Source: Dictyostelium discoideum | Taxonomy: Eukaryota | Assembly (NCBI GenBank): GCA_000004695.1 | Contig: CM000152.2 | Span: forward strand, 5,952,001-6,016,000 | DNA length: 64,000 bases | Direction: 5' to 3' | In this document: positions 40,719-43,716 of the stretch, one piece after another | How positions within the stretch are numbered: position 1 is the first letter of the stretch | How the letters are laid out: each line of letters begins with the position of its first letter | Translations under genes and position numbers: made by a program | Notes under the pieces: generated by a model | Told to the model about the DNA's origin: nothing | Seen by the model: the letters and a program-made list of their open reading frames with translations, nothing else | The model's database searches: none

Positions 40719-40892
40719 ATGAATTTAATAGATTTAATATTAATGGCAATATACGTAATAGGAATATCCGGTTTAATTTTTAATAAAAATAATATTATTA
40801 ATATATTAATAATATCAGAATTAAACTTAAGAACATTAGGGATGTTATTTGTGTTATCTTTTATATATATATATATATATATTTATTATTAA
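40719..40892 (+). pseudogene. probable nuclear copy of mitochondrial nad4L (NADH dehydrogenase subunit 4L) N-terminal fragment (NUMT), truncated by a (TA)n tract
   Basis: 57-codon ORF MNLIDLILMAIYVIGISGLIFNKNNIINILIISELNLRTLGMLFVLSFIYIYIYIYY*: two-helix ND4L pattern (…G.SGLI.N…N.I..L…E…..G..F) comparable to ND4L of other organisms (e.g. human …[32 protein letters not shown]…); nad4L is mtDNA-encoded in Dictyostelium; sits 215 bp after rps11 stop with no introns or signal features of a nuclear gene. Confidence 0.45.
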
Positions 40893-41045
40893 TTTTTTTT
40901 TTTTTTAACATTTTAAAAATGATCAGATTTTTGATTGAGGATTCTGTTTTTTATTTTTATTTTTTTTATTTTTTTTCATTTTTTTTTTATTTTTTTTATA
41001 ATATTTTCACACACCAAATCAAATCCAGGTATTTTAATAATAACA

Positions 41046-41891
41046 ATGAGCCATCTTAGAGGGTCAATTAAAAAAATTGATGAAGCATTAAGTTTGAAAT
41101 GGATAAAATTAAATAAAATTACTTATATTGATTGTAAAGGAAATGAAAGAGTATGTATGATGATGATGATGTTGACGATGACAGTGATAGTGGTATTGAT
41201 GGGATTAAAAAAAAAAAATACAAACTTTAATTCTAATTATAATAATAATAATTTTAAAAAATTAAATAGTTTTGGGAATCAGCATCAAGAACTACAAAGA
41301 AAGGAGATACAGATGGAGTTGATATATTAGCAACAGTGAAAAAAGATGGTAAAAAATATTTAATTGTTGTTGTTCAATATAGAGTTCCAGTTGATAATTT
41401 AGTGATTGAATTTCCAGCTGGTTTAGTTGATAATGATGAAAACTTTGTAAATTCTGCAATTAGAGAATTAAAAGAAGAGACTGGTTATAGAACAACTCCA
41501 GATAAAGTATTATTAACATCACCAATTTTACCATTGGAATGTGGTATGAGTTGTGCTAATGCTAGAATGGTTGTAATTGATGTATGTAATTTTAAACATG
41601 ATTTATAAAATTTTTTTTTTTTTTTGTATTTTCTCCCCCAAATTTTAATCCATTTTTTTTTTTTATTTTCATTTTATTTTTTTATTTTATTTTTAAAATA
41701 TAAATTAGTTGGAGGAAACAATTTGTGAAGAACAAGAATTAGAAGGTTCAGAAAATATTGATATATTTTATTTACCAATGGATAATTTATTTAATGAATT
41801 GGAGGAATTAAGAAAGAAATTAAATTGTGTTGTTAGTATTCAATTATATACATTTGCATTGGGTTTAAATTTTAATAATTTTTTTAAATAA
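41046..41891 (+). CDS. Nudix hydrolase, NUDT5-like ADP-sugar pyrophosphatase, 3 exons, ~199 aa
   Basis: Exons 41046-41150, 41270-41581, 41709-41891 (two GTATGT donors, phase 0). Collinear with human NUDT5: KWIKLNKITYIDCKGNER / FWESASRTTKKGDTDGVDILATVKKDGKKYLIVVVQYRVPVDNLVIEFPAGLVDNDENFVNSAIRELKEETGY (Nudix box GX5EX7REUXEEXGU) / C-terminal …IDIFYLPMDNLFNELEEL…LYTFALGL. Confidence 0.85.
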
Positions 41892-41979: not shown

Positions 41980-42522
41980 CTATTTCTTTTTCTTTTTAAC
42001 ATCTTTATAAACAATTTGAGAAATATTTCTAATATCTAATGAATTTGTAGGTTCGAAATAATTTGAAGCACCAAATTTCAAAGAAGTGGTTCTACCTTCT
42101 TCAACAGAGATATCAGTTGGTTTTAATGGATTTGATCTTTTCTCTGGGTACATACCAGTGATAAAAATTGGAATTTTACCCATAAATTCAATTTCTGGTA
42201 TCCATTGGAAAGGAATATCTTCAAAGGAGATTCTATCATTGGTAGTGAATGCAATGACAGCAGCATCGGCTTGTTCGTATTGAAGTGCACGAAGTCTTGA
42301 ATAACGATCATCACTTGAAGTATTTACAAAAGTGAAATGAATTGGTTTATTATCAATTTGAATAATACCAGTGAAAATCTTTTCAAAATCATTCTCTGCT
42401 TCAATTCTACAATCTTCTAAAGCAGACATACAATATTCAATTAATAATTCTTTATCTTTTGTTTTATCACCTGCAATTACAATAATTATACTATCACCTG
42501 TACAAACAATTTATAAAAGTAA

Positions 42523-42562
<40 letters not shown>

Positions 42563-43716
42563 AATAAATATTTACTATATTTCTTTTTAATTGGTTTCTT
42601 TATATTTGAAGATGAAGGAATTAATGATTTATTAATTGGATTTTCAGTTGATTGTTGTAATTGATTTTCTTTTTTTTTCTTTTCTTTTTCTTTTTCAAAT
42701 TGTTTAACTCTATTAATAAATTCAGAATCTCTTGCATTTAAATTTTCTTCTTTCTTTTCAATATTTTTTAATTTTTCATTTAATTTCTTTTTAGATTCTT
42801 CATTGATATTATTGATTCTTTCATCCAATTTCTTTTTAGATTCTTCATTGATACTATTGATTTCTTCTTCTAACTTTTTCTTTGATTCCAATTGAATAGA
42901 GTTCATTTTCTTTTCCATTTCAAGATTAACTGTTTTCATTTTCAATTTAACTTGGTCATCAATCATTTTTTGATGTTCAGCTTTCATTCTTTCGGTTTTG
43001 ATATGATTTTTCTTTCCAATTAAGCATTTGTTAATTGATTCAATGATACCAGTATTGATTTTATTACCTTTAATTGTTAATGCTAAAAAACGATATTTAA
43101 TGAATTCAGGATTCTCGAATTGATGAAGGAAAGCATTGGCACCAGCATCACCAATTCCACAGAAAAACAATGAAAGATTCTTTAAACGACTTGAACCATT
43201 GATTAATTTGGATAAAATGATAGCACCTTCATTGGAGATTTTATTACTATTTAAATGAATGGTTTCTAATGTATGATTGACTGATAATGCATCTACTAAA
43301 TATTCCATTGATTTACCGGTTATATCACATTCAGAGATATATAATGATTTAAGTACACATTGTTTTGATTTCAATGATTGACATAATAATTTTAAACCTT
43401 GATCACCAATTGGATTATTATCTAACTTTAAGAATAACAAATAACGATTACTTTCAATACCTTCACATAAATGTTTTATACCTATATCTGTAATACTATT
43501 ACTTGAGAGATCTAATGATGAAACAATAGCTTGCTGCCCTAAAGCTTTGGAAATAGTTTTTACACCTTCATCACCCAAATTAATATTTTCTAACTTTATT
43601 AATGGGTGTGATTTTCCATTCATTAATACTTTAGAAATGGTTTTTGGATCATGATCACCAATCTTTTTAAAAAGATGACCTGCAGCTTCTAATGATACAC
43701 AATTATCATATTCCAT
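41980..43716 (-). CDS. RNI-type leucine-rich-repeat + coiled-coil protein; proposed to be spliced to a C-terminal P-loop-less Rho-like pseudo-GTPase domain (single gene, 2 exons, ~544 aa)
   Basis: Exon 1 43716-42576: LRRs (LDLSSNSITDIGIKHLCEGIESNRYL…LKLDNNPIGDQGLKLLCQSL…LNSNKISNEGAIILSKL…FCGIGDAGANAF) then coiled coil with repeated INEESKKKL units, ending …KKKY-a|GTAAAT. 105-nt intron. Acceptor aattgcAG at 42471; exon 2 42470-41980: SDKTKDKELLIEYCMSALEDCRIEAENDFEKIFTGIIQIDNKPIHFTFVNTSSDDRYSRLRALQYEQADAAVIAFTTNDRISFEDIPFQWIPEIEF… which aligns with Rho/Rac (…[37 protein letters not shown]…AKWYPEV…) but lacks the P-loop and has NTSSD in place of DTAGQ. Phase (1) and reading frame are consistent. 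The unspliced alternative makes the LRR ORF end in poly(A)-encoded [10 protein letters not shown] and leaves a start-less Rho-like ORF only ~95 bp downstream. Confidence 0.5.

Follow-up and report, generated by a model that had tools for sequence, protein, structure and literature searches.

We analyzed a window of 64,000 nucleotides of the Dictyostelium discoideum genome (assembly GCA_000004695.1, contig CM000152.2, positions 5,952,001 to 6,016,000 of the forward strand), the minus strand of which holds at 41980..43716 the coding sequence of a protein with leucine-rich repeats (LRR), a long helix, and a C-terminal Rho-like domain. All positions given below are those of the window. As is typical of Dictyostelium, the window is extremely AT-rich, with ~25-30% G+C in coding sequences versus 5-10% in spacers. 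Two open reading frames (ORFs) are found at the locus, one of 397 codons at 42523..43716 (−) and, 3′ of it on the same strand, an ATG-delimited one of 149 codons at 41980..42429 (−). A first-pass annotation of this DNA had proposed that the two belong to one gene; it had placed them ~95 bp apart and had pointed out that the longer ORF terminates only by reading through a poly(A) tract. The measured distance is 93 nt, and the longer ORF does cross a tract of 25 A (42532..42556) before its stop codon.

The splice donor of that annotation, GTAAAT after ...KKKY in phase 1, is correct, and begins at 42575, one base past the codon of Tyr380. When all GT/AG pairs that keep the frame open are enumerated from this donor, four acceptors are found, at 42499-42498 (intron of 78 nt), 42472-42471 (105 nt), 42456 (120 nt), and 42450 (126 nt). 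The acceptor that had been chosen is the second, which is indeed present and in frame, and gives the junction ...KKKYSDKTKDKELL and a product of 543 residues. The conserved junction is the first, 27 nt upstream. The Rho-like frame stays open 5′ of its ATG up to this acceptor (ACAG), and the 552-residue product is identical to the D. discoideum AX4 protein XP_640151.1 (EAL66162.1, UniProt Q54S88), a "leucine-rich repeat-containing protein," whereas the 543-residue product is absent from a collection of 15 billion protein sequences. Acceptors 42456 and 42450 were rejected, as they would remove still more conserved sequence. Coding exon 1 then covers 42576..43716 (−; 1141 nt, with the ATG at 43716-43714, codons 1-380, and the first base of codon 381), the sole intron 42498..42575 (−; 78 nt, phase 1, GTAAAT...ACAG, including the A tract), and coding exon 2 41980..42497 (−; 518 nt, including the TAG stop at 41982-41980). 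The intron has 9% G+C, like the flanking intergenic DNA, and the 27 nt between the first two acceptors have 26%, like the exons. Because of the exact database match, the conserved intron, the colinear full-length orthologues, and the uninterrupted ORFs of relatives (see following), a single gene is established as far as comparative data allow, and 41980..43716 (−) is almost certainly one two-exon gene with a 78-nt intron. The joined gene is not new, as the AX4 annotation already unites both ORFs, and does so at the correct acceptor.

Full-length orthologues, all sharing the start methionine (ME[YF]...), are present in D. dimigraforme (93% identity), D. firmibasis (89%), D. purpureum (65%), Polysphondylium violaceum (64%), Tieghemostelium lacteum (57%), Synstelium polycarpum (44%), Cavenderia fasciculata (43%), and Acytostelium subglobosum (42%); the ortholog of Heterostelium album is a truncated model. 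The same fusion is thereby found in every dictyostelid group. These proteins are colinear across the junction, where the segment SDSIIIVIAGDKxKDKE is conserved throughout. The introns of D. purpureum (72 nt) and D. firmibasis (87 nt) interrupt the same codon in the same phase as in D. discoideum, and C. fasciculata, which belongs to the other major branch, has a phase-1 intron at the homologous position plus another one upstream. In T. lacteum there is no intron, and the LRR, the coiled coil, and the Rho-like domain are encoded by one ORF of 1686 nt. The order of genes, with a TLC-domain gene upstream, this gene, a convergent NUDIX gene downstream, and then the gene of ribosomal protein uS17, is shared with D. 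purpureum and D. firmibasis.

The N-terminal part of the protein is an LRR domain of the ribonuclease-inhibitor (RNI) or NLR-like type (residues ~24-215; 43072..43647, −). Repeats of the RNI class have ~28-29 residues and alternate strand and helix units. Pfam identifies four LRR_6 stretches (E 3e-17) and a Ras domain (PF00071, 37.7 bits) and, at E values up to 1, no COR domain and nothing beyond the LRR and Ras families. The LRR matches ribonuclease inhibitor with an E value of 1e-46 (phmmer on PDB), and a Foldseek search of PDB with the N-terminus retrieves ribonuclease inhibitor and the LRRs of NLRP proteins. An AlphaFold2 (AF2) model built on a 12-sequence alignment has a mean predicted local distance difference test score (pLDDT) of 80.5, and shows in the LRR domain the alternation of strands and helices with a pLDDT of ~90. 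Weak matches to plant NLRC3-like and WPP-domain proteins are confined to the LRR; a RanGAP-like reading, to which the WPP-domain matches lead, was rejected, as ribonuclease inhibitor and NLRP score far better and the resemblance is a nonspecific one of RNI type. Forbes et al. (2021) found no Dictyostelium LRR protein particularly related to RanGAP.

The LRR domain is followed by a long continuous helix, presumably a coiled coil, rich in Lys and Glu (residues 222-341 in the AF2 model; 42694..43053, −). It contains a tandem repeat at 42774..42888 with a period of 45 nt (15 residues, INxINEESKKKLxEx; 2.0-2.3 copies, 84-93% matches by Tandem Repeats Finder), which adds length to the helix in orthologues from group 4, Polysphondylium, and Tieghemostelium and is absent from Cavenderia, Acytostelium, Heterostelium, and Synstelium; the helix segment is shorter in group 1/2 orthologues. 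A disordered linker rich in Lys and Ser (residues 342-380; 42577..42693, −), with a pLDDT below 50 for residues 336-379, leads to the Rho-like domain. By segment, the identity to the D. purpureum protein is 81% in the Rho-like domain, 66% in the LRR, 51% in the coil, and 45% in the linker, the lowest of all. No other segment is as well conserved as the Rho-like domain, which is therefore under selection as a module rather than decaying.

The Rho-like domain (residues 382-552; 41983..42495, −) has a GTPase fold of Rho ancestry. All the 60 PDB matches listed are chains of RhoA, RhoB, RhoC, or Rac1, and the alignments with RhoA and Rac1 (E ~2e-12) start at beta-1. Structure prediction of the C-terminal part gives a small-GTPase fold for residues 382-551, with the corresponding order of strands and helices and a pLDDT mostly of 80-94; Foldseek aligns it with RhoA and Rac1 with template-modelling (TM) scores of 0.73-0.80 on the target. 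The claim that the resemblance to Rho begins only at beta-2 does not hold, as the model has a strand at 382-390, where these pairwise alignments have beta-1. The impression of a domain lacking a P-loop and starting at beta-2 arose because the ORF was read from its ATG and the downstream acceptor was chosen. Both the switch II helix, DRYSRLRALQYE, and alpha-3, SFEDIPFQWIPEI, are clearly Rho-like and vary little or not at all within the family. The Rho insert is 8 residues shorter than in Rac1 and RhoA, and the insert helix is missing from the AF2 model, in which just a helical turn of three residues lies between strand 491-496 and helix 512-521. The protein ends in a KKKKK tail (41983..41997, −), which is nearly invariant in the family, with neither a CAAX box nor a Cys. 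The domain composition first proposed is upheld: LRRs of RNI type, a presumed coiled coil, and a Rho-like domain whose nucleotide-binding motifs are degenerate.

All five G motifs of this domain are degenerate when set against the sequences of Rac1 and RhoA; the RhoA segments used agree with the PDB alignments. G1 had been described as absent. There is indeed no intact GxxxxGK[ST], but a conserved remnant of the P-loop, [AV]GD[KN]xxDK, is present, in which Gly390, Asp391, Asp395, and Lys396 are invariant. In D. discoideum it reads GDKTKDKE (residues 390-397; 42448..42471, −) for GDGAVGKT in Rac1, so that the invariant Asp takes the place of the second Gly, the Lys persists, and Glu occupies the position of the Mg-binding Thr; across the family the motif is [AV]GD[KN]xxDK[ECN], with the first Gly and the Lys invariant. 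In switch I, the equivalent of Thr35 is lost across the family and there is a three-residue insertion. At G3, NTSSD stands in place of DTAGQ (42310..42324, −), just as the first-pass annotation had it: the counterparts of Asp57, Gly60, and the catalytic Gln61 are an invariant Asn, a Ser, and an Asp, respectively, and the switch II helix follows. The family consensus here is NTS[SGA][DHN]. At G4, TGMYPEK (42139..42159, −) replaces [NT]KxD (VGTKLDL in Rac1), with an invariant Met and loss of the Lys; the family pattern is GM..[DE], an acidic residue often being retained. At G5, EPTN (42043..42054, −) replaces ECSA, and the family has EP.. or EVGG in place of SA[KL].

Residues that bind phosphate, Mg2+, and guanine, as well as catalytic ones, are thus replaced in the five G motifs, and a plausible reading is that the C-terminal domain is a pseudoGTPase. 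The known roles of these motifs in the Ras superfamily underlie the interpretation of their replacement as loss of nucleotide binding and hydrolysis. Judging from the motifs, GTP hydrolysis is likely to be absent; absence of nucleotide binding is somewhat favored, with clearly less assurance. One may alternatively regard the domain as an atypical Rho GTPase that still binds nucleotide, either constitutively GTP-bound like Rnd and RhoH or using another nucleotide. The term "divergent atypical Rho GTPase" of Forbes et al. (2021) goes in this direction, and so do the invariance of Gly390 and Lys396 in the P-loop, the common occurrence of Asp or Glu at the position of the NKxD Asp, and the strong purifying selection on the domain. 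However, Rnd and RhoH keep G1, G3 (DxxG), G4, and G5 and lose catalytic residues only, whereas here the second Gly of the P-loop is an invariant Asp, Glu, Cys, or Asn stands in for the Mg-binding Thr, DxxG has become NTS[SGA], G4 has lost its N/T-K and G5 its SA, and switch I has lost its Thr and gained three residues. We consider a nucleotide-binding Rho GTPase unlikely, if still the best of the alternatives.

The second alternative concerns the intron, which would extend over 105 nt (42575..42471), always or in most transcripts, to give a protein of 543 residues in which the Rho-like module lacks beta-1 and any remnant of the P-loop. The AG at 42472-42471 is in frame and followed by GT, the resulting ORF is open, and this acceptor could serve D. 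discoideum as a minor alternative. Yet the 27 nt at stake encode DSIIIVIAG, that is, beta-1 and the first Gly of the degenerate P-loop, and these nine residues are kept in every ortholog, form strand 382-390 of the fold, and align with beta-1 of RhoA and Rac1; the exon-like composition of the 27 nt and the failure to find the 543-residue product in the protein collection argue in the same direction. The AG itself (42471..42472, −) is made of the last base of the codon of Ala389 (GCA) and the first of that of Gly390 (GGT). D. purpureum and D. firmibasis read ATT GCT GGT where D. discoideum reads ATT GCA GGT, and therefore lack it, which indicates that it is an accident at a synonymous site. A 105-nt intron, as the real or main one, is very improbable.

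Still less probable, and already contradicted, is the presence of two genes, an LRR/coiled-coil protein ending past the A tract and a short Rho-like protein with a start of its own at the ATG 42429, for although both ORFs exist as such and one automated annotation of D. cf. discoideum splits the locus into proteins of 383 and 176 residues, T. lacteum has the whole architecture in one uninterrupted ORF, as do two further relatives, including on transcript-like contigs, the position and phase of the intron are conserved between species, the gap has canonical GT...AG ends and a G+C content of 9%, the ATG-started product would miss beta-1 and alpha-1 of the fold, and even the split annotation keeps the DSIIIVIAGDK segment in its second protein. 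The preferred model remains the single gene with the 78-nt intron. In that D. cf. discoideum annotation (P0022/P0024; ACTFIZ_006339 and ACTFIZ_006338), the 383-residue protein ends in ...KKKYSKY and the 176-residue one starts with MIFTGDSIIIVIAGDK. Seven further entries in this 90% identity cluster, from assemblies of D. discoideum, D. citrinum, and D. dimigraforme, are annotated as single proteins of 551-552 residues, and the split seems to be an error of gene modeling at the A-rich intron.

The family extends slightly beyond the sampled dictyostelids. An exhaustive HMMER search with a profile of the pseudoGTPase domain among 1.84 billion cluster representatives retrieves nine proteins at E < 1e-30: four dictyostelid representatives, a protein of 526 residues (P0029), and four proteins made of genuine Rho domains in tandem, their motifs intact. 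P0029 has the same architecture as the D. discoideum protein, including the poly-Lys tail. It is encoded by two Logan contigs (L006, SRR1276198; L007, SRR1276203) of 1.65-1.75 kb and ~52% G+C, which look like transcripts because each holds only this ORF with short untranslated flanks. A protein of 545 residues (P0010) is encoded on a JGI metagenome contig (L002, 3300032739; ~40% G+C), in one uninterrupted ORF beside an unrelated gene. The members on L002 and on L006/L007 have the LRR, the coil, the degenerate Rho domain, and the poly-Lys tail, and their G+C is well above that of the window and of its coding exons. The fusion may thus predate the sampled Dictyostelia or extend beyond them.

Among the 146 matches listed besides the four dictyostelid representatives, the NTS signature is found only in P0029, the Rho-type switch II motif RLRxLSY in 76, and a Rab-type motif in 1. 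Per domain, members of the family score 183-239 bits, divergent Rho proteins 81-92, a RhoA-like protein 51-61, and Rab-type domains 21-29. On sequence grounds, the family is a small Rho-derived clade of Dictyostelia and at least two unsampled relatives. A scan of JGI metagenomes with the pseudoGTPase alignment gave 155 pattern matches, none of which was confirmed as a relative. The top single-domain matches outside the family, P0039 (192 residues) and P0045 (184 residues), are small Rho-type GTPases with intact G motifs that share the family-like SRLRxLxY, DRxSFE, and WIPE; the pseudoGTPase domain may have its nearest active relatives in these two. In the P. violaceum model (P0004, CYY_006636; 715 residues), ~170 extra C-terminal residues, with Pfam matches PF05603 and PF21057, replace the poly-Lys tail; here the annotation has probably merged the ortholog with the gene downstream.

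Forbes et al. (2021) placed the protein in clade 15 of their Rac-Rho tree. In their Table S1, DDB_G0282605 / DPU_G0060690 / DLA_05249 / PPL_00360 / DFA_09768 is the only unnamed Rac-Rho row conserved in five of the five species, and for this reason the gene of the window (Q54S88) is very probably DDB_G0282605. Both its domain conservation and the conservation of its developmental regulation were scored "full" by the authors. The architecture had been put forward as one not recognized from characterized families; it is, however, annotated as one AX4 gene and was noted by Forbes et al., so that the earlier proposal amounts to the rediscovery of an existing gene model, with an acceptor error of 27 nt. 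Literature searches for Q54S88, XP_640151, EAL66162, and DDB_G0282605 gave no main-text matches, and one for Dictyostelium and pseudoGTPase gave a single unrelated paper. The supplement text of a D. discoideum life-cycle proteome paper yielded neither Q54S88 nor DDB_G0282605, and so no evidence at the protein level; we found no paper on the protein's motifs, pseudoGTPase status, mutant, localization, or partner. Hence, the pseudoGTPase reading is apparently unpublished.

Among known systems, Rho and Rac proteins (human RhoA and Rac1, Dictyostelium Rac) share with this protein the fold and are its nearest relatives in sequence, as seen in the switch II helix and in alpha-3 (FEDIPFQWIPEI here versus LENIPEKWTPEV in Rho/Rac), and they also have a polybasic C-terminus. 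They differ from it in that its G1-G5 are degenerate, its insert is shorter, it has no CAAX, and 380 residues of LRR, coiled coil, and linker precede the Rho-like domain. Another comparison is with pseudoGTPases and atypical Rho proteins (p190RhoGAP pG1/pG2, CENP-M, Rnd1/3, RhoH, RhoBTB/RacA), which resemble this protein in having a GTPase fold with lost consensus motifs that is part of, or serves as, a protein-interaction module. Rnd, RhoH, and the GTPase domain of RhoBTB still bind GTP. To our knowledge, none of these families has a member that joins a Rho-derived domain to a coiled coil and LRRs of RNI type. The functions of pseudoGTPases covered by review lie in scaffolding and allosteric regulation, as for CENP-M, the Rnd proteins, and the pseudoGTPase domains of p190RhoGAP (PMC10211241).

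Roco proteins (LRR-Roc-COR; LRRK2, Dictyostelium Roco1-11), a family abundant in Dictyostelium, also have LRRs N-terminal to a Ras-superfamily domain in one polypeptide. Membership of this family was rejected, as the first-pass annotation had anticipated: the protein has no COR domain and ends with its GTPase-like domain, which is of Rho type rather than of Roc type and has lost the nucleotide motifs, and its LRRs are RNI-type and set apart from that domain by the long helix. Forbes et al. (2021) also find Roco and Roco-like (Rol, DDB_G0270744) proteins in separate clades. Finally, ribonuclease inhibitor, the LRRs of NLR proteins, the LRR of tropomodulin/leiomodin, and RanGAP belong to the same LRR class as the N-terminus, but the protein has no NACHT, RanGAP C-terminal, or WPP domain. 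Because such LRRs are generic protein-binding horseshoes, the match implies no specific shared function.

The joint explanation that best accommodates these data, and one that we regard as probable, is a two-exon gene whose product combines RNI-type LRRs, a helix, a basic linker, a Rho-derived pseudoGTPase, and a poly-Lys end, and would act as a scaffold or decoy rather than as a switch. In such a mechanism, the Asp replacing the second Gly of the P-loop, the loss of the Mg2+-binding Ser/Thr, the change of DxxG to NxxS, and the loss of the NK and SA guanine contacts would block normal binding of GTP and Mg2+, and the loss of the catalytic Gln would block hydrolysis. Because the replacements in the G motifs are invariant across the family, and the switch II/alpha-3 segments are conserved even more, the domain would present a nucleotide-independent, permanently "set" Rho-like surface, in which the Rho-type switch II and alpha-3 face would be a constitutive binding surface. 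The long helix, predicted as a single one of 120 residues with 15-residue repeats (from the AF2 model of a single chain and Tandem Repeats Finder), plausibly dimerizes as a coiled coil. The LRRs would bind a second partner, and the poly-Lys tail, free of a lipid anchor, could hold the protein electrostatically on acidic membranes or target it to the nucleus. A role as scaffold or decoy in Rho signaling rather than as a switch is, taken by itself and by analogy, a tentative proposal, with at best an even chance of being right. The full picture, that of a nucleotide-free Rho-derived pseudoGTPase with a frozen switch II/alpha-3 surface, acting as a dimeric decoy or scaffold tethered to membrane or nucleus that links a Rho regulator or effector to an LRR partner, and invented in the lineage of Dictyostelia and two relatives, is possible but rather doubtful.

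Several points weigh against this explanation. The invariant Gly and Lys of the P-loop, and the acidic residue that often persists at the position of the NKxD Asp, may reflect residual or unconventional nucleotide binding by the Rho-like domain. The 78-nt junction in D. discoideum comes from comparative and database evidence, and an exact-sequence look-up of the 552-residue protein retrieved no Logan transcript contig from D. discoideum itself. The link between Q54S88 and DDB_G0282605 derives from a table row. The AF2 model has a predicted TM score of 0.48, with no confident arrangement between domains. No partner, localization, or phenotype that would directly bear out the scaffold or decoy role, the dimer, or the membrane tethering was found in the literature.

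Next to the gene, a multi-exon NUDIX hydrolase gene (41040..41891, +) converges on it. The last ORF of the latter ends at 41891, and only 88 nt of spacer, with 4.5% G+C, lie between it and the stop codon of the LRR-pseudoGTPase gene (41980, −); because of this, the 3′ untranslated regions and poly(A) sites of both genes must be very short or overlapping. In the spacer between an exon of the uS17 gene (rps11) and the NUDIX gene there is an ORF of 57 codons (40719..40892, +; MNLIDLILMAIYVIGISGLIFNKNNIINILIISELNLRTLGMLF...) with a weak, subthreshold Pfam match to chain 4L of NADH-ubiquinone oxidoreductase (PF00420, E 0.004, 17 bits versus a cut-off of 26). The ORF may derive from mitochondrial nad4L, as a fragment now in the nuclear genome, or the resemblance may be due to chance.

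The annotation of the genome is unaffected by these results. They call for caution in the reading of ORFs in AT-rich genomes, where an ATG-delimited ORF can conceal upstream coding sequence and an in-frame AG within a codon can mimic an acceptor. For the family, the catalogue label "atypical Rho GTPase" probably hides a pseudoGTPase, one that is conserved across Dictyostelia and present in a tractable organism. If the domain is nucleotide-free and retains the switch II surface of Rho, it would be a natural probe for partners of Rho that bind independently of its nucleotide state.

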